Below are positions 3,703-36,392 of a stretch of 64,000 nt of DNA, in pieces. The number at the start of each line of letters is the position of its first letter. The first letter of the stretch is position 1. The DNA is from Candidatus Bathyarchaeota archaeon (GTDB taxonomy: Archaea; Thermoproteota; Bathyarchaeia; 40CM-2-53-6). The notes beneath the pieces were generated by a model, which made no database searches, was not told where the DNA came from, and was given only the letters and a program-made list of their open reading frames with translations. The stretch spans positions 109,344-173,343 of the forward strand of contig CAVPLU010000012.1 of assembly GCA_963706285.1 (NCBI GenBank). Reading direction: 5' to 3'. The translations under genes and the position numbers were made by a program.

Positions 3703-4140
3703 TTGCCGAAGAATATCCTGGCTCCTGTCGATGGTTCTACGTACATGGAACGAAACGTCAGATACACGTGTCACATCGCCAAGAGTATGGGTTGTGACAT
3801 GACGCTACTTTACGTGGTGACGATGCCGATCGGCATCATGTCGGACTACGGATATGCACCTCCTGCATTTGTCGACATTGAGCAGTTTCGACGAATCGGC
3901 TCCGAAGTTCTTGAGAAAGCCAAGAAGATTGCACAAGAGAGCGGAATAGATGCCAAGACTAGGCTGGAGGTAGCGTCTGGGAACGCTGCACAGAAGATCC
4001 TTGAAGTCGCCGAGAGCGGAGGGTTCGACCTAATCGTCATAGGCTCCAAGGGCCACAGCCTTCTCAGAAACGTGCTCGTCGGAAGCGTCTGCGACACAGT
4101 TTTCCGCCACTCTAAGTGTCCGGTCCTGGCGATACGGTAG
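3703..4140 (+). CDS. universal stress protein (UspA family)
   Basis: ILAPVDGS, DLIVIGSKGHS...VGSVCDTVFRHSKCPVLAIR. Confidence 0.92.
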   Translation: MPKNILAPVDGSTYMERNVRYTCHIAKSMGCDMTLLYVVTMPIGIMSDYGYAPPAFVDIEQFRRIGSEVLEKAKKIAQESGIDAKTRLEVASGNAAQKILEVAESGGFDLIVIGSKGHSLLRNVLVGSVCDTVFRHSKCPVLAIR

Positions 4141-4334
4141 AGCCGAACAGCCACCAGCCGTACATGTGAAATATGCTGTTACTTAGCAGCCTTGGCTTTT
4201 CGTATTACGTCACCGTTGGACCTGGTGAACTTGATGCTGTCGCCTTTCTCAGCTCGGCTTCAACCCTATTCATTAACGAGTTATCTACACCCTCGAAAGG
4301 GGTCTAGCACAGCAATCCAGAGAACTCGTATCGA

Positions 4335-4391
4335 TTGAAAAGAAAGAAACCAGAAAAAAGGGAAGTCGGCAAGAAGCGAACCCGAACTCCT
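4335..4391 (-). terminator. hairpin plus T-rich tract downstream of the Tyr-rich peptide gene
   Basis: Minus strand reads GGAGTTCGG...CCGACTTCC followed by CTTTTTTCTGGTTTCTTTCTTTTC. Confidence 0.5.
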
Positions 4392-4440
4392 TCTGGTCGA
4401 GTTTGCTTCTATGCTAACAGAATAGCCTTGTCGTTTTTGT

Positions 4441-4608
4441 CTAGTAGTGGTGGTAATCAGCGTGAGGTGGTATCATGTGACGATCAAACCACTTGTAGTC
4501 ATAATGTCCTCCGAAGTACGGATAGTCATAGAACTGTACGGGGTAGTACCAGTACTGCGGATAAGAGTACTGAGGATAGTACCAGTATTGGGGATACCAG
4601 TATGACAT
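4441..4608 (-). CDS. 55-aa Tyr/Trp/Pro/His-rich peptide with YPQY repeats (absent from the ORF track)
   Basis: Hand translation: MSYWYPQYWYYPQYSYPQYWYYPVQFYDYPYFGGHYDYKWFDRHMIPPHADYHHY*; strong SD AGGAGGTGAG 6 nt upstream; repeats vary at synonymous positions. Confidence 0.75.
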   Translation of the reverse strand: MSYWYPQYWYYPQYSYPQYWYYPVQFYDYPYFGGHYDYKWFDRHMIPPHADYHHY

Positions 4609-4690
4609 ACCTCTCTCACCTCCTAACCACTCATGAACTACTGCCTAGACGCTAGAGAAAGTGCGATTGACTGTCGACGAGTTTCTCAGG

Positions 4691-4960
4691 CTAAAGGTGG
4701 TGCCATTGAGAGCGTCCACAGTTCGGACAGTAGTCAATGCCTGCATCAGTTGTAGCAATCAAGGGCTGGAAGCAATACCTGCAATCCTCCATCCTCTCCA
4801 CTTCTTGAGAATGGTTGGCAATAGTGCGGATCCATTCAGAGCCAGGCTTCGGATAGACGTACCAGTGCTCATGTGGAAATCCATAGTCGTGGTATTCATA
4901 CGTCCGATGTGCTGGACAATAAGCCACATCCGGCAGAGCACTTAACCCTCTATATGACAT
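4691..4960 (-). CDS. small Tyr/His-rich zinc-ribbon protein, paralog 1 (start could be 4966 or 4972)
   Basis: YCPAH...CRYCFQPLIATTDAGIDYCPNCGRSQWHHL; clearly homologous to 6320-6574. Confidence 0.8.
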   Translation of the reverse strand: MSYRGLSALPDVAYCPAHRTYEYHDYGFPHEHWYVYPKPGSEWIRTIANHSQEVERMEDCRYCFQPLIATTDAGIDYCPNCGRSQWHHL

Positions 4961-5001
4961 ACTCATTTTCATCCTTCCCTGCCATAATGGTAAAGCAAGG
5001 T

Positions 5002-5023
5002 CAGCATACATCTTTCAGTTTAC
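5002..5023 (-). promoter_or_regulatory. 22-bp upstream motif shared with 6264-6285
   Basis: Minus strand GTAAACTGAAAGATGTATGCTG versus GTAAACTGGAACACGTATGCTG (19/22 identical), both ~35 nt upstream of an ATG. Confidence 0.6.
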
Positions 5024-5238
5024 AAGCGTTAGATATTGACGCCCCCGACAAGATGTGCACAGAAACATTGAGTTCTGGATCAATGTGGTGTAAAGCCTAG
5101 TAGTATTCAGCGTTAAGAAAACCTCAACCGAGGAAATCCGCAAGCCTCATGTGCTCGCTGTCAGCTTCAAGCCCTCGACGAGATGCGAGTGGCAAGGTCT
5201 TTATTGGGAAACAGAGAATTCACCAAGGGGTGCAACAG

Positions 5239-6033
5239 GTGCAGGTCTCAATCGATGGAACAACGATACACTACGTTGACTCCGGAGATCCTGCAGGCTA
5301 GACCCATCGTTCTTATTCACGGATTTCCGTTCAGTCATGAGATGTGGAGCCCACAGATCGCCTTTCTAGAAAAGAAGCTGCGTGTCATCGCCTACGACGT
5401 TCGAGGGCATGGCAAGAGCGATGTTGGCGACGGCCAGTACACCCTCGAACTGTTCGTGGACGACCTCATAGGTCTGCTAGACCATCTGAAAATAGAGAAA
5501 GCAGTCTTGTGCGGGCTATCGATGGGGGGTTACATTGCTCTGAGAGCGATTGAACGAAACCCTGAACGCTGGCATGCTCTCGTTCTCTGTGACACCTCCT
5601 CGCAGGCCGATTCGAATGAAGCTAAGCTTAGACGTGCAGCCACGATAAGGGCGATTAAACGTGAAGGCGTGAAACCATTCGCAGACACATTCTTGGAATC
5701 AGCCTTCGCTCAGACGGCCAAAGACGCCGAAGCTGAGACTGATGATGAAGAAGATCATCGAATCGAATTCGCCCATTGGAATTTGCGGAACCCTCCTTGC
5801 GCTTGGCTGGAAGAACAGATACAACAGCCGCGTTGAAAACAATCAACGTTCCAACGCTCATTCTTGTTGGAGAACTCGACAAGATTACCCCGCCCGTCCT
5901 CTCGCAGAGGATGCATGACGAGATCAAAGGGTCCGAACTTCACATTATTCCTCATGCTGGACATTTGAGTAACCTTGAAAACTCGGCGGAATTCAACAAG
6001 TGTCTGCTTGACTTCCTACAAGGACTGACTTAG
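5239..6033 (+). CDS. alpha/beta hydrolase (enol-lactonase-like), split by two frameshifts
   Basis: VLIHGFP, YDVRGHGKS, nucleophile elbow GLSMGG, GELD and HAGH across ORFs 5183-5836 and 5776-6033; N-terminus VQVSIDGTTIHYVDSG lies in another frame. Confidence 0.85.
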
Positions 6034-6263
6034 AACCACTTAGCCATCAGATGATGCTTGAGCTTTGGCCTATTGCTGACTCTAATATGCTGGCATTTTC
6101 GAAGGCTGGCCCGCAGTTGATGCCAGCGCAAGTGCTCGCCAGACTCTTGGACGAGGCAAGGTATCTTTCTCACACTCAGGCGTATCATGTTTGGCGAAAC
6201 CATTGATAGACCCTCCTTAGCTCTTGTCTCTGTTCGGAAAAGAGCCTACAATGGTTAGCGGTC

Positions 6264-6285
6264 GTAAACTGGAACACGTATGCTG
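6264..6285 (+). promoter_or_regulatory. 22-bp upstream motif shared with 5002-5023
   Basis: GTAAACTGGAACACGTATGCTG, ending 34 nt upstream of ATG 6320. Confidence 0.6.
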
Positions 6286-6319
6286 GACTCGTCCATTCTC
6301 TTCTTACAGTGAAATTGAA

Positions 6320-6574
6320 ATGAGCTACGTATACCAAGCGTTACCGGGGTACTGTCCTTGGCATCAGAGCTACGACTATGACTACCTGTACTCCTACAGT
6401 CCTCAGCCACTATCACATGTGGACATGCAGCATTATCCTCTTGTAGGTGAGCATCACGGCGGGGTACACATCTCAGAGAACTGCAAATACTGCTTTCAAC
6501 GGCTGGTAGCCACCCAAGATCCAAGCATAAACTACTGCCCACAGTGCGGAAGGTATCAGCCGCATCGAATCTAA
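6320..6574 (+). CDS. small Tyr/His-rich zinc-ribbon protein, paralog 2
   Basis: MSYVYQALPGYCPWH...CKYCFQRLVATQDPSINYCPQCGRYQPHRI. Confidence 0.8.
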   Translation: MSYVYQALPGYCPWHQSYDYDYLYSYSPQPLSHVDMQHYPLVGEHHGGVHISENCKYCFQRLVATQDPSINYCPQCGRYQPHRI

Positions 6575-6698
6575 ACATACTTTCCAAAACGACATTGGGG
6601 GCCCCAACGGCCCCCGTAGGCACAGTAGCTGAAACCTTCCACAATTCGATTATCTGCTTTACCCTTGAGATAGAAAATAATCGTTTCAATTCCTTTGA

Positions 6699-7646
6699 CT
6701 AGGCAATGAGTTGGCTGGTAGACGAGGCGATCTGTATCGGCGCTTCGCCGCACAGTTGAGCGATCCTGTTCCAGTTATGTTCGACTTGCCTCCGCAATTC
6801 TTCAAGATCCTTGGTGAATTCTGGCGCGAACAGGTGCCTGAATCTGCCTTGGGGTTTGAGGAATTCCTCAAGCGGGATTGGTTTCGGTATTTTCATGCTG
6901 AGTTTGTACTTTCCATTTTCCACTTCGTAGAGAGGGAAGTACCCGGTCTGGACGGCTAGCCTGGCGAGCTTGATCGTCTCACTGGTCTCGAATCGCCATC
7001 CGAGAGGACATGGCGCCAGCACATGTATCACCGCTGGACCTTTGATCGCTGTAGCTCGCCGAACTTTGGTTATGTAATCGTTCCAATATGCAACGGAAGC
7101 CGTGGCGGCATATTCCACTCCATGTGCAACACAGATGCCGATGAGGTCCTTCTTCGCGTCTGTCTTGCCAGGGATCTTTGAGCCTGCGGGTGTGGTCGTT
7201 GTGGCTGCCCCATATGGTGTTGCGCCAGACCTCTGTATTCCGGTGTTCATGTATGCCTCATTGTCATAGCAGATGTAGGTGAAATCGTGCTTCCTCTCGA
7301 GAGCGCCCGACAGCGCTTGGATTCCAATATCAAATGTGCCTCCGTCTCCGCCAAACGCGACTATGTCAACCGCGTCGGCCTTTCCCTCTTTTTGTAGGGA
7401 CGCTTCGATCCCCGACGCTACCGCAGAAGCGTTCTCAAAGAGTGTGTGAACCCAGGGCACCTTCCAGGCTGTGTCAGGATAGATTGTGGTCGCAACCTCA
7501 AGGCAACCGGTAGCGTTCACAATGATTGTGGGCTTCTGCAGGGCTTTTAGTGTGATGCGTGCCGTGGTTGCAGGACCGCAACCAGTGCACATTCTGTGGC
7601 CTGGACCGAAGGACTCTTGCGTTGAAAGCTCTTTCAGACTGACCAC
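6699..7646 (-). CDS. porB: pyruvate/2-oxoacid:ferredoxin oxidoreductase beta subunit
   Basis: GHRMCTGCG, NATGCLEV, TPP motif GGDGG...YDNEAYMNTGIQRS. Confidence 0.93.
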   Translation of the reverse strand: MVSLKELSTQESFGPGHRMCTGCGPATTARITLKALQKPTIIVNATGCLEVATTIYPDTAWKVPWVHTLFENASAVASGIEASLQKEGKADAVDIVAFGGDGGTFDIGIQALSGALERKHDFTYICYDNEAYMNTGIQRSGATPYGAATTTTPAGSKIPGKTDAKKDLIGICVAHGVEYAATASVAYWNDYITKVRRATAIKGPAVIHVLAPCPLGWRFETSETIKLARLAVQTGYFPLYEVENGKYKLSMKIPKPIPLEEFLKPQGRFRHLFAPEFTKDLEELRRQVEHNWNRIAQLCGEAPIQIASSTSQLIA

Positions 7647-8840
7647 TAAGCTCGCACTCCCATGAAGGTCACCGGATCGTCGATCTCAGCACCATTGGCC
7701 TGATGTAGCGCGGTTTCGAATATGCCTTCGATGTCGCTTGGTTTGATGTCTCTTCCGCCTAAACCGCATATGACGTTGAAGATCTTGGTCTGAATACCTG
7801 TAAGTACTTTGGTTGAGGCGATATCGCTGCATAACGCACCGTAAGGTGCCCCGAATGATATGGCTCGGTCAATTACGCCGACGCTCTTCGCTTTTGACAG
7901 CACCTCGTGCAACTTCTTTTGTCGGGAAAGGTCTGTACTGCCAAAGCTTGACAACACCGACACGCTTGCCTTTCTGCCTCATCTTTGCTGCAACAGCGCG
8001 AGCTGTTCCGGCGACGCTGCCCATGCATATCACCGCGGCATCGGCGTCTTCCATGTCGAAGGCGGATAGTTTTGAGTATTGTCTGCCCGAGATTTCTTGG
8101 AACTCATCTGCTACTGAAGCAATAACCGGCGGTGCGTTCTTCATTGCCTCGACTTGCTGTCGTTTGAACTCTGTATAGTAGTCAGGGAGCGTCAGCGGTC
8201 CGAAGGTCATTGGATTCGTCGTGTCCAGCTTATAGAGTGGGTTCCTCTTGCCGAGGAAGGCGCTGACTCTGTCATCTTCGAGTACGGCTACGCCTTCCAT
8301 TGCATGAGAGATCGTGAATCCGTCTAGGTTCACGGTCACTGGAAGCGATACCTTGTGATCTTCTGCGATCCTGAAAGCCTGGATAGTCCAGTCATATGCC
8401 TCTTGTGCGTTCTCCGCATATATCTGGATCCAGCCGCAGTCTCTGGAACCCATCATGTCTGAGTGGTCGTTGTGGATGTTGATAGGCGCGGAGAGTGCCC
8501 TGTTAGCAACCGCCATAACAATCGGCGTGCGCAAACCTGAAGCGAGGTAGAGCACCTCATGCATCAATGCCAGTCCTTGGCTCGATGTTGCCGTGAACAC
8601 CCGTGATCCAACAAGGCTGGATCCAACGCATGCCGAGAGCGCTGAGTGCTCGGACTCAACGCAAACAAACCGAGTGTCAACTTCCCCGTTTGCCACATAG
8701 TCGCTGAATCGTTCAACCATTATCGTCTGAGGAGTTATCGGATAGGCGGCAACAACGTCAACTCGAGCTTGTTTGGCTGCAAAGGCAACAGCCTCATCGC
8801 CATTCATTCCGACGATCTTCTGAGAAATCGTCTTCGACAA
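7646..8840 (-). CDS. porA: pyruvate/2-oxoacid:ferredoxin oxidoreductase alpha subunit, frameshift near 7910
   Basis: AAYPITPQT, ESEHSA, ATSSQGL; C-terminus (VIDRAISFG...GLGGRD) in ORF 7646-7963. Confidence 0.92.
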
Positions 8841-10093: not shown

Positions 10094-10801
10094 TTGACGT
10101 ACTCCCCCATCATCGCAGTTCTCGTATCTGCATTGTTTGCGGCCATTTCCGATCTTGCTGGAGCTATACTCTTTCTGAAGTCGAGGTTTCGGTCTATTCA
10201 AACCAGGTACGCTGTAGGGTTTGCTTCTGGGATTCTGGTCTCCGCCGCATTCCTTGAACTTATTCCGCAGGCTGATGTGTCGACAAACGCGCTAATCGTT
10301 CTCCTAGGCTTCTTCACATTCTACTTGGTCGAGAAGGCGATAATGCTCCACTCTTGCGGTGAAGCTGAGTGCGAAGCGCATACTGTAGACTGGATCTCTA
10401 TCGTCGGAATGGCTTCTGACAACATTGTTGACGGAATAGGTATTGCGATCGGTTACGCGACAAATCCCTCCCTTGGTCTCGTGATCACTTTGGCAGTAAT
10501 CGCTCACGAGATCCCTCAAGGCTTCACGACAGCAGCACTCGCAACCAGATCGGGATTTCGCGTGTGGCGAATCATAGTTTTTCTCCTTATTGCGGGTGCC
10601 ATGTATCCAATCGGAGCTGCGCTGGCGTCACTCATACCGGCCAATTTCTACACCATGGCAATAGCATTTGTTGCAGGTGACTTCATCTACATAGGCGCGG
10701 GAGACCTTCTCGGGGAAGCCCATAAGAAGTTCAACGCAAGAGTGGTCATCTCAGTAGTTCTGGGCGGCCTAATCGCTGTAGCTCTCAACTTCCTCGGCTA
10801 G
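10094..10801 (+). CDS. ZIP family metal transporter
   Basis: About 8 TM helices; GFASGIL..AFLELIP, DNIVDG, AVIAHEIPQG, AFVAGDFIYI. Confidence 0.9.
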   Translation: MTYSPIIAVLVSALFAAISDLAGAILFLKSRFRSIQTRYAVGFASGILVSAAFLELIPQADVSTNALIVLLGFFTFYLVEKAIMLHSCGEAECEAHTVDWISIVGMASDNIVDGIGIAIGYATNPSLGLVITLAVIAHEIPQGFTTAALATRSGFRVWRIIVFLLIAGAMYPIGAALASLIPANFYTMAIAFVAGDFIYIGAGDLLGEAHKKFNARVVISVVLGGLIAVALNFLG

Positions 10802-18426: not shown

Positions 18427-20856
18427 CTACGCACTAGCCCGTTGACGCTTCTTCTTCATCACAAGTGAGAGGCCCGCAACACCCAATATCACTGCCACAA
18501 TTGTCGCAACAACCATCGGCATTTGCAGCAGGTCTAGGGACCATGGACCACCGTTCGATGTCGTTCCTGTCTCTGTCTGAGTTTGATACTGACTTCTCAC
18601 AAAATAGTAGATGCCGTCCGATCCTAGTGCGGCTACGATGCAGCATGCATTCCCTGAGATCGCGACGTGGCCACCACCCGTAACATCCGCTTGTCCCGGG
18701 TAAGTGTAGTTCCCCAACAAGTGACCGTCGTCGCTCAGAATTTGAAGCGTTCGAAATGTACCAGAATCAGAATAGGGGCTTGAAATAATCACGACGGAGA
18801 CGTCTCCTCTGTCCGACATGGATACTGATACAACTGATCCGTTCACGTCCGTCTCCCAGTACGGTCCGGTCGCATTTCCAAGGAGCAACGCTCCTTCGGG
18901 GCTACCGGCAAGGAATCTTTCGCCACTCTCAGAAATCGTGACCATAGGTTTGTTCACGGACCTGCTCCATAGGATTCTCCCTTCGTGATCAAATGCATCA
19001 AGCTGGGAATCGCTCCCAGCCAGAACGTATCGGCCATCTTTGGATACAGCAACGTTCCAGACACATCTTGGAGCGACATATTTCCAAATCTGCTTTCCTT
19101 CTCTGTCGTACAGAACTACTCCATTTCTTCCACCGCAGACTGATCCGAAGCGGACGGACTGTTCTCTCATAGCGGCGGCCACGTACAATCCGTCAGCGGA
19201 GACTGCCACGTTACTGTGCACGTGAAGGAATTCATAGTATCCCACGAGTTCAGTTGCATTCGTGATCTGTTTCCACAACTGGCGGCCTTGCGAGTCGAAT
19301 GCAGAAATGAAGGTATAGTTGCCCCAGACGACACCTGATACCGCCACCAGACTACCGTCATCAGACATTGATAATGAACTTGCGACTGATTTCGCGTCCA
19401 ACGCCGTGGTCCTAATCTGGCGTCCGGTGCTTACGTCATACCAGGCTAGGACAGTCTGCTCTTGGTTCCCTGTTTCGGTCGAGTTGACTGTCACTAGAAT
19501 TTGGCCGTTCGACGAAATTGCCGAGATACTTGTGGATCCGTAGATTCCGATTGGGCTTATTGTTCCAGTCATCATTATCGTTCCATTGTCATTGATGACA
19601 GCAGTGCCCAGTGATTCTCCTGATGAGTATCCGATGGCTATTCTTTTCCCGTCCTGTGAAGTCTGAATGTTGAACGGGAGGGAGGACCCGATCTCGGTGT
19701 GCATCCATAGGATATTTGCCCCTGCATCTAGCACGTACATCACGTTCTCGCCTCCAACCGCGGCCATTATTCCCGGCCCTCCTATTGCGACCGATCGCAC
19801 TACCGAACGCAGATTTCTCCTTGACAATACGTTGCCAGATCGGTCCAGAACGTGGATAGTGCCATTCAAATCGCCTACAACGAATCTGGAGCCATCGTTG
19901 GCTACGGCGAAGGCTTCCACGCTATAGGGCACCTGAGAATCCCACAGTTTCTTGCCGTTCACATCGAACAATATGACATGAGCGTCGTTGAAGAGTCCGC
20001 CTGCTACAGCGACGTATTCTCCTGAATCAGACACCCAGAGGTGCGGATACGACTCAGCGTATTCGAAAAGGCGGGGTAGTGGTGCAGACCATAACGGATT
20101 GCCGTTCTGATCGAAAAGATAGACCCCTCTTGGGCCCGCGGCAGCAATCACCAGTCCATTCGACGACATAGCCACGTAGACAACAGCATCGTGAACGGTT
20201 GCATTCCATTTCTTTCCGGAATCAAGATTGGCAAAGTAGAGGAAGTGATCTCTGTCTGTCCTGCTCCATGTTCCAACCGCAACGTACCGTCCGTCCTTGG
20301 AGATGACCGGTGCGCTTGCAAGATCTGATTCGCTTCCGAATCTCTGATCTAGAAGAATGGCTCCACTTCTGTCCTTCACGACAAGCCGTTTTTGCCACCC
20401 GTTCGAAAGGCGATTGGCGCCCACTATCGCTGCCCTTACGCTATCCGTGGAAAGTGCAGAGTGATCGATCTTATCTAGGGTGTAGTTCCATTGCCTTTGC
20501 AGTGTGTCCGTGTCAATCAAAGACACTCCCTGTGCTCCCACCACGGTAGGGTATTCGGTTCCCAGAAGTGCTGATTTGCCATCAGAGGAGAACTGCGCGA
20601 AAACAGCATTACGATCGGGCAGATGCCAGATCAATCTCCCCTTGGAGTCATAGAGGTAGTAACCATCAAAAAGAACTGGGAGTAGGATCTTCTGGCCGTC
20701 TGGTGAAACAGCTGCCAACTGAAGATCTCCCACGGGGAGTTTCCAAGCCAGTTTGTAGTCATCGGAGACTTCGTTAGAAGCCACTGATAGTTGACTGCTT
20801 GATGCACAAGATACTAGGATCAGCGTCATTAGCAGCAGAGATGACAAAGATTTCAT
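18427..20856 (-). CDS. membrane-anchored PQQ/WD40-like tandem beta-propeller surface protein
   Basis: Signal peptide, many S.DG..vav / fd..G..lW blade repeats, Thr-rich linker, C-terminal TM plus KKKR. Confidence 0.88.
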   Translation of the reverse strand: MKSLSSLLLMTLILVSCASSSQLSVASNEVSDDYKLAWKLPVGDLQLAAVSPDGQKILLPVLFDGYYLYDSKGRLIWHLPDRNAVFAQFSSDGKSALLGTEYPTVVGAQGVSLIDTDTLQRQWNYTLDKIDHSALSTDSVRAAIVGANRLSNGWQKRLVVKDRSGAILLDQRFGSESDLASAPVISKDGRYVAVGTWSRTDRDHFLYFANLDSGKKWNATVHDAVVYVAMSSNGLVIAAAGPRGVYLFDQNGNPLWSAPLPRLFEYAESYPHLWVSDSGEYVAVAGGLFNDAHVILFDVNGKKLWDSQVPYSVEAFAVANDGSRFVVGDLNGTIHVLDRSGNVLSRRNLRSVVRSVAIGGPGIMAAVGGENVMYVLDAGANILWMHTEIGSSLPFNIQTSQDGKRIAIGYSSGESLGTAVINDNGTIMMTGTISPIGIYGSTSISAISSNGQILVTVNSTETGNQEQTVLAWYDVSTGRQIRTTALDAKSVASSLSMSDDGSLVAVSGVVWGNYTFISAFDSQGRQLWKQITNATELVGYYEFLHVHSNVAVSADGLYVAAAMREQSVRFGSVCGGRNGVVLYDREGKQIWKYVAPRCVWNVAVSKDGRYVLAGSDSQLDAFDHEGRILWSRSVNKPMVTISESGERFLAGSPEGALLLGNATGPYWETDVNGSVVSVSMSDRGDVSVVIISSPYSDSGTFRTLQILSDDGHLLGNYTYPGQADVTGGGHVAISGNACCIVAALGSDGIYYFVRSQYQTQTETGTTSNGGPWSLDLLQMPMVVATIVAVILGVAGLSLVMKKKRQRASA

Positions 20857-20947: not shown

Positions 20948-22727
20948 CTAGAAGTGTGTCAGGCGGTACTCAAGCGCATCCATTTCAGTGAGGATCTCGC
21001 GTGGTAGTCGGTCGCCGAATTGTTCAAAGAATTTGCGCTGGTCAGTGATGTCTTCAAGCCAGGCGGATCTATCTACTTCAAGGAGCGCCTCCATGTCGTG
21101 GTCCGATATTTCAAGTCCCGTCAAATCGAGGCTTGACTTGTGGGGCAGGTAACCTAATGGAGTGGTGACCGCTTCTGCTTCGCCTCTACTCCGTGCGAGG
21201 ATCCACTCGATGATCCTTAGATTCTCTCCGTAGCCTGGCCAGAGGTAACGTCCGTTGGCGTCCTGCCTGAACCAGTTCACGTGAAATATCTTGGGTGGCT
21301 CAAGCATTCGGGCGCCCATCCTAAGCCAGTGCACGAAGTAGTCAGCCATATTGTACCCGCAGAATGGCAACATCGCCATTGGGTCACGCCGCAACTGGCC
21401 CTGCTTGCCGTACTGAGCAGCAGTCAGCTCCGATGCTGCCGTCGCTCCGACATAGACGCCGTGCTGCCAACTGAATGCCTGATAGACCAATGGAGCCAAG
21501 TGAGCGCGTCGGCCTCCAAAGACGATCGCCGAGATCGGCACGCCGTGGTGCTGCTCAAGCCGGAAGGAGACAGATGGCACTTGAGAAAGAGGCGCAGTAA
21601 AGCGGCTGTTAGGGTGCGCCCCCAAGACGGGGTTACCGTTCTCGTCTTTCATTCTGAGAGTTCCAAGGGCGACCACGCCAATCGAGACCTTCGCTGGGAG
21701 GCGGATCGTCTCCGCCCTCCCACCACACTCCTCCATCCGATGTCAAGATCACGTTTGTGTAGATGGTGTTCTTTCTGATCGCGGTCATGGCGTTAGGATT
21801 CGTCTTGGTATTGGTTCCGGGCGCGACGCCGAACAGACCTATCTCCGGGTTTACTCCCCAAAGGCGCCCGTCGGTGTCAATTCTCATCCACGCGATATCG
21901 TCTCCGACGGTCCATATTCGATACCCTTTCTGTTGCAACCCTTTCGGGGGAACCAGCATTGCCAAATTCGTCTTTCCACACGCGCTTGGAAACGCAGCCG
22001 CTAGATACTCGATGCGGCCGTTCGGCTCTTCGACGCCCATGATCAGCATGTGTTCTGCAAGCCAGCCTTCCTGACGGGCTGTGTAGCTTGCCATGCGTAG
22101 CGCGAGGCATTTCTTCCCGAGAAGCACGTTCCCTCCGTATCCGGATCCGACGCTCCAGACAGTGTTGTCTTCGGGAAAGTGCAGTATTAGTCGCTTGTTG
22201 ATGTCCAGCTCAGCCTTGCTGTGGAGGCACTTTGTGTACTCCCGGTTGCTGTCCAGATAGTCCAGCACCTTGCTTCCCATTCGAGTCATGATGTGCATGT
22301 TTTCGACGACGTATATGCTGTCGGTGAGCTCAACTCCAGTCTTGCCGAAGGTTGACCCGACCGGACCCATTGAGAACGGGATCACGTACATGGTGCGGCC
22401 CTTCATCGAGCCCGCGAAAATCTCACGTCCTCGCCGGTATCCTTCCTCTGGCGACATCCAGTTGTTGTTCGGTCCGGCTTCATCCTTCTTGCTCGTGCAA
22501 ATGAAGGTCAGCTGTTCCGTTCGAGCTACATCATTCTCGGCGGTCCTATGCATGACGCAGCCGGGCAGCTTCGACTGATTCAGCAGGATCAGTTCGCCGG
22601 TCGAGATCGCCTCTGCGCGTAGCCGTTCCCTCTCAGAGTCAGAACCATCACACCAGTAAATCCGCTCAGGCTGACAAATATCCGCCATATCACGCACCCA
22701 AGCGTGGAGCTCCTTGTGGTATCCCAT
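20948..22727 (-). CDS. pckG: phosphoenolpyruvate carboxykinase (GTP), frameshift near 21655
   Basis: GYGGNVLLGKKC, AFPSACGKTNLAM, VGDDIAW, HPNSRF, DPMAMLPFCGY, VNWFR. Confidence 0.93.
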
Positions 22728-23015
22728 CTTGTCTTCTTCCTCTGTTTGACCGACCGGCTTGCGTTCCGGCGTAGTGATCGCTAGGCTCCGTCGTATGAGG
22801 TTTGTTCTTGTTCTCGGAAGGCCCTTCATCGCGAAAGGCACCTTCAAAGAAAGCTGATTGCAGAGATCCACTAGGCGAATCCTGCATACGCGCAACGCCA
22901 GATCTGACGAATCGGATTTCCTGTTAGGTTGTCCTGACGGCTTGTCTCGTTGTTCCACCCATCGCCTTTCTATATATCATCGGGGGACCAGTTGGGGAGA
23001 AGAGTGGTTCCACGC

Positions 23016-25137: not shown

Positions 25138-25578
25138 TCAGCTAAGAAATGTCAATATGGAGATTGCAGACCAGGCTAGTAGAAAGATAATCGGCAAGAA
25201 CTGAGTAAGGTATGATGGGCTTGAAAACGGTTCTCGCGATGCGTGACTTTCAACTTGGGAATAGCATCGAAACGGATCCAGCTCCTCGTCAAGCCTTATG
25301 ACCTGTTCCCTCCACAACTGAATCCACTTGATCGAGCTTCGCAGTACCAGCAACCAAAAGACGGCCGTGAATGCACCCAGTATGGGAATGACTCTCAGGA
25401 CAGCAATGCCTCCCTTCAAACTGGGAAACGATACGGCAAAGGCTGAAAGAAGACCGGCATGAGCCAACAGGAAAAAGTTGGCTCTAATCCAGTACTGCGC
25501 TGTATCTTGCTTCAGATGGTCGGTCACAACTTTGAAGATCTCAATGTCACGCTTGAGGTTCTTCCGCCGCGTTGGCAT
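25138..25578 (-). CDS. 3-TM protein resembling the RipA-type octameric membrane protein family
   Basis: W.RANFFLLAH..LL, G....FW..., IRLDEEL, LPIIF pattern. Confidence 0.55.
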   Translation of the reverse strand: MPTRRKNLKRDIEIFKVVTDHLKQDTAQYWIRANFFLLAHAGLLSAFAVSFPSLKGGIAVLRVIPILGAFTAVFWLLVLRSSIKWIQLWREQVIRLDEELDPFRCYSQVESHASREPFSSPSYLTQFLPIIFLLAWSAISILTFLS

Positions 25579-25896
25579 GATTTGTCCCAGTTTCTGCAGA
25601 TGCTCATAAGCAATTGAGCTTTGTGCAACCCTACGGATTCGCAATCCAGACTTCCCTGGAGAGAGCCATATCTATCCGAATGTTCTGGGAGCAACCACAT
25701 CACCTGCGGAAACATGGCACAATTGAAGCGGTCCAAACAATCCCAAAACGTGGAGAATTCTGACGACCGCGGATTGGGAGCAGCTGCTTAGAAGAAAAAT
25801 AGAATCTCATCAACTGCGCGGGTAGGGTGGCACTCGCAGAACCAGCTTAAACGTCACTCAAGGCTCCAAGGCTAGTAATGCGGCGCCAAGAGCTCC

Positions 25897-35217: not shown

Positions 35218-36392
35218 ATGTCTTTGCCTGCGAATCTCACGGCTGAAGCGAAAGCCAAGTGGAACAAGGCTCAGCAGGCAAGAACAATCAAAGAGAAGAT
35301 CATAGCGCTGCAGGAATTCTTATCTGCAATTCCAAAACACAAGGGAAACGAACGCCTTCGTGCACAGACAAAGCGGAAGATTGCTCTACTGAAAGCGGAA
35401 ACCCAGGCCAAGCGCAAGCCAGTAGGGATTAGGATTGCCGAACGAGGCATACAAGAAGGCTGGCGCCGCACAGATCGTGATCCTTGGGCTAACGAAAGTC
35501 GGACGAAGCAGTTTGCTAGGCGCCGTCACTGGCGCCAAACCGGTTGTGGCATCGTATCCGTACGCCACTAAAGAGAGCGTGCCTGGAATGCTGCGATTCG
35601 AGGACGTGCAGTTTCAACTCGTTGAGCTTCCGGCTCTCGTGCCAGGAAACGAGGAGGAATTTGTGTTTCAGGAAGGCTCCGCGGATCTAGTCCGCAACTC
35701 TGATGGCCTCATCGTGATGGTAGACCTAGGTGCTGATCCTGTCAAACAGTTGGACGTCATACTCGCTGAACTTGTGCGCTCGCAAGTCAGCCCAGAGAAG
35801 TTGGAATCGAATGCAGGCATTTCCAAAACGAGATCTGGGGGCGTGCACCTTGTCACCACTGGTCGCCTCTTGGCTGCACACGCGAAGAAATCGCGTCATT
35901 GCTGAAGAACTACGGTATCTCGAACGCAATTGTCCGAACAACGGGAGATGTGACACTTGACAATATCGAGGATGTGATTCTTGAAACCAACCTCGTCTAC
36001 AAACCTACAGTTGTCATTGCCAACAAGGCAGATTTGCCGCATGCTTTGGAAAGACATAGACAACTTCTGGACATCGTGGGCTCGAAGATGCATATTCTTG
36101 CGGTTTCATCCCACACTGGGATTGGACTCTCAAGTATTGGAAGGAACTCTTTGAGGCCTTGGATCTTGTCCGAGTCTATACTAGAGAACCGAATGCCACT
36201 CGTCCGTCACCCGACCCCTTCATCATTGGGAAAGGCTCAACGGTTGGGGAGCTAACTCACAAGATACACAGCGCACTCTTCAATGATTTTGGGTACACGC
36301 GAATTTGGGGCAAGAGTGTAAGCTATGGTGGGGAACGCGTTGGAATCGGGCACATCCTCTCCGACGGGGACGTTGTGGAGATACACGCGTGA
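35218..36392 (+). CDS. DRG/OBG-family GTPase with TGS domain; three frameshifts
   Basis: PANLT, IPKHKG, GLTKVGRSSL, YPYAT, ANKAD, C-terminal TGS (RVG..H.L.DGDVVEIH). Confidence 0.88.

Follow-up and report, generated by a model that had tools for sequence, protein, structure and literature searches.

A stretch of 64,000 nucleotides (nt) from a Candidatus Bathyarchaeota archaeon (contig CAVPLU010000012.1; the whole stretch is referred to below as the window) contains two short open reading frames (ORFs) that, judged by sequence comparison, are ancient paralogues of a rare and unclassified family of zinc-ribbon microproteins of about 85-91 amino acids (aa). The interpretation that we tentatively favor is that they are zinc-stabilized binding or regulatory proteins derived from a double ribbon whose first copy has decayed, that the two genes are switched on together, that a highly aromatic peptide encoded beside one of them is a possible partner, and that an α/β-hydrolase gene and a UspA-family gene close by are mere neighbors. 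The kind of protein, i.e., the archaeal zinc-finger microprotein, is already known; what is new is the decayed double ribbon, the Tyr/His linker, the control element, and the aromatic neighbor gene.

The paralogous pair and its family

The two genes are as follows (coordinates include the stop codon):

4691..4966, minus strand: paralogue 1, a type A microprotein of 91 aa (MSMSY...QWHHL)
6320..6574, plus strand: paralogue 2, a type B microprotein of 84 aa (MSYVYQ...QPHRI)

In the ORF list, paralogue 1 falls within an ORF at 4691-5011(-) with an internal MSY start at 4960, and paralogue 2 within an ORF at 6224-6574(+) with an internal MSY start at 6320. A preliminary description of this region had given the first gene as 4691-4960(-). 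The ORF exists at that place, but its start is most likely two codons earlier, at 4966 (MSMSY...), because orthologues begin with MSMVY or MSMIY and because an element upstream of both genes (see below) then lies within 1 nt of its spacing in paralogue 2.

BLASTP aligned the two proteins with an E value of 1e-14 (21/43 identities over the C-terminal ribbon), and a MAFFT alignment of the whole pair gave 48% identity, with 38 invariant columns that include M-S-Y, ALP, YCPxH, CxYCFQxLxAT, and YCPxCGRxQxH. This reproduces the paralogous motif set out in the preliminary description, and the alignment likewise confirms the N-terminal CxxH, the two CxxC pairs, and the His residues near the C terminus that were claimed there. 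Paralogue 1 has, in order, a CPxH remnant (C17, H20), the His pair of PHEHW (H32, H34), a Tyr/His-rich linker, and a Cys4 ribbon (C62-C65...C80-C83); paralogue 2 has CPWH (C12, H15), SHVDMQH (H34, H39), a conserved hairpin, and a Cys4 ribbon (C55-C58...C73-C76). Each contains 7 His and 5 Cys. Identity between the two genes at codon positions 1, 2, and 3 was 0.60, 0.65, and 0.28, and the third base was common to 12 of the 37 identical residues other than Met and Trp. This pattern argues for purifying selection at the protein level, and hence for real genes rather than chance ORFs, while the third-position value of 0.28 indicates that synonymous sites are saturated and that the duplication is old.

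A profile of the pair recovered only 7 clusters among 5.77 billion proteins, all of them derived from metagenomes. When all of 1.84 billion representatives were searched exhaustively with HMMER and a 9-sequence profile, 12 proteins had E <= 1e-3, of which 6 had E <= 1e-10 and 1 had E <= 1e-30; cluster look-ups gave further, near-identical members. The hidden Markov model search proposed in the preliminary description thus returned a rare family with exclusively metagenome-derived members, and it matched no characterized family. There were 25 pattern matches to the family in GTDB contigs taken from one genome per species, none of which (0/25) was confirmed. Among 27,439 six-frame segments from the window and 80 related loci around porB, only the two window ORFs matched (E 7.6e-44 and 3e-42; the next was 0.047), and none of the 80 loci contained a family member within 10 kb of porB.

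The preliminary description did not recognize the family, and databases of known families agree. In Pfam, paralogue 1 scored 16.4 bits against A2L_zn_ribbon (PF08792; cut-off 22.9), the window proteins scored 17.1 bits against Zn_ribbon_8 (PF09723; cut-off 34.4), and neither window protein matched DZR (PF12773; cut-off 27.3 bits). The NCBIfam model for FmdB (TIGR02605) gave them 16.2 bits, below its cut-off of 31.3. In PHROGs the best match was to a family of unknown function (E 0.027), none of the PADLOC families was matched by the window proteins, and tblastn against 50,697 phage records gave no match. A sequence profile run against the PDB found unrelated cytochromes and antibody chains (best E 0.032); in the ESM Atlas the best score for paralogue 2 was 0.81, with nothing significant. 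We found no paper on such a tyrosine-rich archaeal zinc-ribbon family in those parts of the literature that were consulted.

The 24 short forms of the family fall into 10 of type A (YEYxDYGxPHxHW) and 14 of type B (YDYDYxY...SHVDxQHYPxVGEHW). In a maximum-likelihood tree of 22 sequences, the seven type A rows formed a clade with support of 100/99, within which paralogue 1 was sister to the relative P0001 (support 100/99); paralogue 2 lay within an unresolved type B grade, and three double-ribbon relatives (P0012-14) lay on the opposite side (support 100/100). Because types A and B each have orthologues elsewhere, the duplication is older than the divergence of the organisms that carry them.

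Among the short forms, YCxxH was found in 23/24, the exception (P0005) lacking both the Cys and the His. The Cys4 ribbon, CxxC-x(13-16)-CxxC, and the C-terminal QxH tail were each found in 23/24, and both are incomplete or missing in P0007, whose sequence stops inside the ribbon. A regular expression detected the type-specific His pair (PHxHW in type A, HxDxxH in type B) in 23/24, and inspection by eye showed RHVDLQH in the remaining one, P0008. Strongly conserved ribbon residues that are not ligands form the patterns E-N-C, Q-x-L, A-T-x-D-P, N-Y-C-P, and Q-x-H-R. In P0005, which is of type B, YYPWL replaces YCPWH, so that Cys and His are gone together, while P0029, its mate in a cluster at 90% identity, keeps both; this would fit a joint function of the two residues, but equally a sequence error.

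The double-ribbon relatives P0012-14 (85-86 aa) suggest where the N-terminal knuckle came from. Their N-terminal ribbon matches positions 55-85 of the family profile, i.e., the C-terminal ribbon, and MAFFT placed the YCPxH of the window proteins under the second knuckle of that first ribbon. When the N terminus of the family was aligned with its C terminus using hhalign, PDVAYCPAHRTYEYH paired with AGIDYCPNCGRSQWH (E 4e-4). These results give moderate support to the view that the family descends from a tandem double ribbon, of which the first copy would have decayed to a CPxH knuckle in the window proteins. Three longer relatives, P0016-18 (197-257 aa), have in addition a DZR-like ribbon at the N terminus and a long coiled coil, and the N terminus of one of these relatives, P0018, was the sole sequence to pass the DZR cut-off (29.8 versus 27.3 bits).

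AlphaFold2 models had a mean predicted local distance difference test (pLDDT) score of 63 for paralogue 2 (76-89 in the ribbon blocks) and 55 for paralogue 1 (73-74 in the ribbon blocks). They contained strands around both ribbon knuckles, a low-confidence hairpin around CPxH, and a linker that is predicted to be disordered (pLDDT <50). Zinc binding by the ribbon is a prediction from the four Cys ligands, and a second, Cys-His3 metal site, formed by C17/H20/H32/H34 in type A and C12/H15/H34/H39 in type B, is possible.

The closest parallels in kind are the haloarchaeal C(P)XCG microproteins studied by the Soppa laboratory (e.g., HVO_2753 and HVO_0758), which are also small archaeal proteins built on CxxC/CPxCG knuckles and are cytoplasmic, as the window proteins probably are. 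Each window protein carries one exact CPxCG motif (YCPQCGR / YCPNCGR), as in that group, and in HVO_2753 one predicted zinc site may likewise be non-functional (PMC11241148). However, the window proteins have 84-91 aa rather than <70 aa, with one CxxC lacking the G and one CPxH; they have a long Tyr/His-rich linker and the CPxH remnant; and they belong to another phylum. Membership of the group was not supported by profiles: PF07754 gave 16.1 bits (cut-off 33.2), for the relative P0001 only, and matches to the models for HVO_2753 and HVO_0758 were below cut-off or absent. With DZR, Zn_ribbon_8, and A2L_zn_ribbon the family shares a two-knuckle Cys4 ribbon, and P0012-14 have two ribbons, but its conserved signature of hairpin and ribbon, W[HR]G-x3-ENCxxCxQxLxxTxDPxxNYCPxCGxxQxH, is specific to it, and the window proteins score below every cut-off; unlike in DZR, only CPxH is left of their first ribbon. 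Foldseek against the PDB, run with the low-confidence model, placed ribbons of Csl4, RPA12/TFS, and ribosomal proteins in the top rows (2ba1_A, 6hko_I, and ribosomal chains), over about 30-37 residues. This is a likeness of fold only, with a best E of 0.2 and no match at E <= 0.001, so that in the PDB neither sequence nor fold yielded a significant relative.

The shared upstream element and the aromatic peptide

Three further features lie close to the two genes:

5002..5038, minus strand: conserved upstream element, copy 1, 36-72 nt before the 4966 start; core GTAAACTGAAAGATGTATGCTG
6249..6285, plus strand: conserved upstream element, copy 2, 35-71 nt before the 6320 start; core GTAAACTGGAACACGTATGCTG
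4441..4608, minus strand: gene for a 55-aa aromatic (YPQY) peptide, 82 nt beyond the end of paralogue 1, which has the same orientation

The best inverted repeat in the region 4140-6700 pairs 5002-5038 with 6249-6285, i.e., it is the same 37-nt block read in the orientation of each gene. The two copies are identical at 28/37 positions (76%), which none of 300 shuffles reached (maximum 23), and their register relative to the two genes is offset by 1 nt. Within the block, a 22-nt core, GTAAACTGnAAnAnGTATGCTG, occurs at only 2 sites in the 64 kb, against 0.00 expected, and had no match in the 80 related porB loci. The block is not hidden coding sequence, because its frame with respect to the coding sequence is not the same in the two genes, and its 76% identity at a time when synonymous sites are saturated argues for selection on the block itself.

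To extend this to orthologues, we used ORF calls that are over-extended at the N terminus, and asked whether the protein extension can encode the core. The extension of P0024 was compatible with the core at 19/19 specified bases, 54 nt upstream, and that of P0008 at 17/19 bases, 56 nt upstream; in both cases 0/1000 shuffles were as good. Conservation of the block suggests shared regulation of the two paralogues, and we infer that it may be core-promoter or operator DNA through which both genes are switched on together, since its position fits if the 5' untranslated region is about 25-30 nt long. The co-regulated module postulated in the preliminary description thus finds support as far as the two paralogues are concerned, but not in its inclusion of the hydrolase and UspA genes.

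The possibility of an RNA element was considered and set aside in favor of one acting at the DNA level: RNAalifold, applied to both upstream regions, gave -2.35 kcal/mol with 8 pairs, and Rfam at gathering thresholds had 0 matches over the window. A scan for sigma-70 promoters and terminators, which was not designed for archaea, found sites no commoner than in shuffled sequence. Both genes also have in common a second short patch, CATTGAT, some 118-121 nt upstream of their starts (window positions about 5078-5085 on the minus strand and 6199-6206 on the plus strand); this stretch reads LAKPLI both in the in-frame upstream translation in the window and in the P0024 extension, and either another regulatory footprint or chance may account for it.

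Tyr (17 residues), Trp (4), and Phe (3) make up 44% of the peptide, and a further 5 residues are His. When 1324 ORF segments of the window were ranked by the number of Tyr in a 30-aa stretch, the peptide came top with 13, paralogue 2 was second with 8, and paralogue 1 was tied third with 6. The isoelectric points (pI) of the peptide and both paralogues are 5.9-6.3. A strong Shine-Dalgarno sequence, GGAGGTGA (plus-strand positions 4616-4623), is located 7 nt before the ATG. The peptide is conserved in 9 sequences, made up of an 8-member cluster at 90% identity and the more distant P0021; over 8 aligned sequences, 37/55 positions are invariant, including a non-repetitive tail, GGHYDYxWxDRHMIPPHxD. 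By this pattern of conservation it is a real, conserved gene. It had no match in Pfam, NCBIfam, PHROGs, or PADLOC, and no usable match in the ESM Atlas.

The 82-nt spacer between paralogue 1 and the peptide gene contains no run of 5 or more T, and a T-rich tract follows the peptide gene on the minus strand (4337-4359). The peptide is probably co-transcribed with paralogue 1 in this genome and may be its partner. The linkage that had been claimed between them stands in the window, where paralogue 1 is directly upstream, co-oriented, and 82 nt away, but it does not extend to P0034, an ORF-extended copy of the peptide in which no family gene is recognizable in the 249 nt upstream. In P0034, some 80 nt in front of the peptide gene (window 4609-4690) seem to be conserved: in translation, 10 codons before the start are identical, about 14 further codons are similar with a 2-codon indel, and the likeness stops at about the stop codon of paralogue 1. 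This suggests that the type A gene is separable from the peptide cassette. Among the listed members, for each of which the longest contig alone is given, no peptide relative and type A relative had contigs of equal length.

One of the longer relatives, P0017 (197 aa), has between its ribbons a linker, YYPEQYYPQQYYSQRYYPEQYYSYP, that resembles the repeats of the window peptide and has the word QYYPE in common with P0021. Tyr-Pro-Gln repeats (YYPEQYYPQQYY...) and a family ribbon thus occur in one chain, perhaps a hint that such repeats and the ribbon are functionally connected.

Neighboring genes and assembly quality

Two other genes adjoin the pair:

5149..6033, plus strand: α/β-hydrolase, esterase-like, frame-interrupted, between the paralogues (Pfam Abhydrolase_1, 81.3 bits)
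3703..4140, plus strand: UspA-family gene, convergent with the peptide gene (Pfam Usp, 98.1 bits; cut-off 24)

The two paralogues do face outward around the hydrolase, as had been described, but the hydrolase is not one intact ORF. It consists of two overlapping ORFs, 5183-5836 and 5776-6033, which are collinear with residues 27-158 and 192-268 of the esterase 4uhh_A in different frames, and by eye a typical N terminus (VSIDGTTIHYVDSGDPAG) can be read in a third frame at 5149-5301; the gene therefore reads in at least 2 frames and, by eye, in three or four. The UspA gene does border the cluster, but its convergent orientation leaves it without an operon relation to the others.

Frame changes of this sort are not confined to the hydrolase. 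The porA gene (7646-8840, minus strand) is split, with positions 1-48 and 43-102 of the PFOR_II profile in two ORFs, as is the PEPCK gene (20948-22958, minus strand), with positions 1-135 and 133-356 of PEPCK_GTP. Splits in such core genes imply that the assembly probably carries indel errors, and these frame changes may well be assembly indels rather than gene decay. The hydrolase may be either a pseudogene or an assembly artifact. In a DRG-like GTPase (35435-36255, plus strand), also, the G domain and an extension lie in separate ORFs.

Downstream of paralogue 2, and convergent with it, is the por operon. The closest relatives of its porB gene (6699-7646) are in Bathyarchaeota/Bathyarchaeia loci from metagenome-assembled genomes (L001-L006; 63-69% identity), with a seventh labeled Acidiferrales (63%). 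The gap in which paralogue 2 and porB converge contains, at 6597-6615, a perfect 7-bp GC hairpin (GGGGGCC...GGCCCCC), which may be a bidirectional terminator-like structure. A gene for a zinc transporter of the ZIP family (10094-10801, plus strand; Pfam Zip, 70.2 bits) is found some 3.5 kb away from paralogue 2 and diverges from the por operon; it could have a bearing on zinc-binding microproteins, or its presence could be coincidental. Other genes in the window are ordinary archaeal chromosomal genes, encoding TFB, SUI1, tRNA-intron endonuclease, H+-PPase, PEPCK, and AdoHcy hydrolase. Also present, and unrelated to the pair, are genes for an 809-aa PQQ_2/β-propeller protein (18427-20856, minus strand) and a member of the 8xMP octameric membrane-protein family (25138-25644, minus strand).

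Proposed function of the microproteins and alternative explanations

In the interpretation that we favor, a zinc-stabilized ribbon displaying conserved non-ligand residues would serve as a knob that specifically binds a macromolecule, either protein or nucleic acid, as its partner. The Tyr/His linker would supply multivalent aromatic and histidine contacts and perhaps the second, Cys-His3 metal site; the 37-nt block, as core promoter or operator, would turn on both paralogue genes together; and the aromatic peptide, made with paralogue 1 from one transcript, would be a possible partner. A binding or regulatory role is suggested by analogy with the zinc-finger microproteins of Haloferax, for which regulatory or adaptive rather than enzymatic roles are described, 12 of 16 deletion mutants having phenotypes that concern stress, biofilm, and swarming (PMC6562870). 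The microproteins would be cytoplasmic: sequences of the paralogues and the peptide, as read directly, contain no hydrophobic signal or membrane segment, and the Cys4 zinc sites point the same way. This makes the envelope structure mooted in the preliminary description unlikely.

Several observations weigh against this interpretation or its components. For the double-ribbon origin, hhalign assigned the internal repeat a probability of only 35%. The N-terminal halves of the AlphaFold2 models are of low confidence (10-residue block means of 43-55 and 36-54), and for this reason the Cys-His3 site is a reading of the sequence and not a result of the model. With regard to zinc itself, 5 of 14 purified C(P)XCG proteins from Haloferax were zinc-free and AlphaFold2 cannot tell which ones bind (PMC11241148). 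It is by its position that the block suggests a promoter, and it has no canonical TATA box; the core is weak in the type A orthologue P0038 (16/19 at -82 nt, with 17/1000 shuffles as good); and P0024 is a close relative of paralogue 2, so that part of its upstream conservation may reflect recent divergence only. As to the peptide, homology with the ribbon family was considered and rejected (hhalign E 0.27, probability 0.2%), and none of 22 candidates for fused long forms of the peptide had E <= 0.01. In P0034, the 249 nt upstream of the peptide cannot encode the C terminus of any of 32 family proteins: the longest compatible run was 8 codons, compared with 55/55 for the positive control, paralogue 1 of the window.

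Among the alternatives, metal buffering or storage would mean that Zn, Ni, or Cu is sequestered by the microproteins, which are rich in His and contain Cys, and by the peptide with its His residues, possibly in cooperation with the ZIP transporter. The numbers of His and Cys given above, the conservation of the His positions, and the presence of the ZIP gene would all suit such a role, and some Haloferax C(P)XCG proteins are described as carrying non-zinc metals (PMC11241148). We nevertheless consider it unlikely, because at most two sites per ~90 aa would provide poor capacity, because conservation is strongest at non-ligand residues on the ribbon surface, which fits recognition better than bulk binding, and because the ZIP gene is beyond the por operon in its own divergent transcription unit. 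It is also improbable, in our view, that the peptide and the Tyr/His linkers form a self-assembling aromatic material, in which condensation, gelation, or cross-linking in response to pH or metals would create a matrix for stress or dormancy. The Tyr densities, the pI values of 5.9-6.3, and the YYPEQYYPQQYY... linker between the ribbons of P0017 would fit this idea, and there is a resemblance to the histidine-rich peptides of squid beak (GHGLY repeats), which are short and rich in His and Tyr; the window peptide has GGHYDY and a His/Tyr cluster at its end. According to the squid-beak work (PMC10766971), those peptides phase-separate via His-Tyr and Tyr-Tyr contacts and self-coacervate on a pH shift. 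However, they are animal, extracellular, and not homologous to the window peptide, so that the analogy is one of composition, and searches brought up no known phase-separating or structural protein as a homologue. Over its last 23 residues the peptide shows sequence-specific conservation, unlike generic low-complexity drivers, and a secretion signal is absent from the peptide and both paralogues. A more elaborate version, which we regard as a long shot, combines these elements: the ribbon proteins and the 44%-aromatic peptide would constitute an undescribed archaeal system in which products of a shared promoter form, via Cys-His3 sites and His-Tyr/aromatic contacts, a zinc- or pH-responsive intracellular condensate or redox-buffering matrix, which the ribbon tethers to a specific target.

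Adjacency is the only argument for a functional module centered on the hydrolase and including UspA, the arrangement implied by the preliminary description, and we think such a module very unlikely. At least 2 breaks interrupt the reading frame of the hydrolase, the conserved block that precedes paralogue 2 lies beyond the hydrolase stop codon, the UspA gene is convergent, and no family member is near porB in the 80 related loci. We infer that both genes are ordinary neighbors. Hardest of all to credit is the idea that the aromatic peptide is the precursor of a ribosomally synthesized natural product and is recognized or processed with the help of the ribbon proteins. A short, conserved peptide with aromatic repeats beside a small binding protein does recall such systems, but scanned window ORFs of at least 100 aa contained no radical-SAM, cyclase, P450, or peptidase-maturase domain, the sole peptidase is a trypsin-PDZ protein 27 kb away, and the peptide shows no evident division into leader and core.

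Archaea are rich in small zinc-finger proteins that are still largely unexplained, and in this respect the family would offer a tidy evolutionary case in which a ribbon was duplicated and one copy decayed into a segment rich in Tyr and His. It also presents two paralogues that have long been retained with a conserved control element, and next to them an extremely aromatic, conserved peptide. Should neither the second metal site nor the partnership with the peptide prove real, it would be one more lineage-specific hypothetical family. If, on the other hand, either of them is real, the pair would provide a testable model, in an uncultured but globally abundant archaeal group, of how a folded zinc knob is combined with sticky disordered regions.

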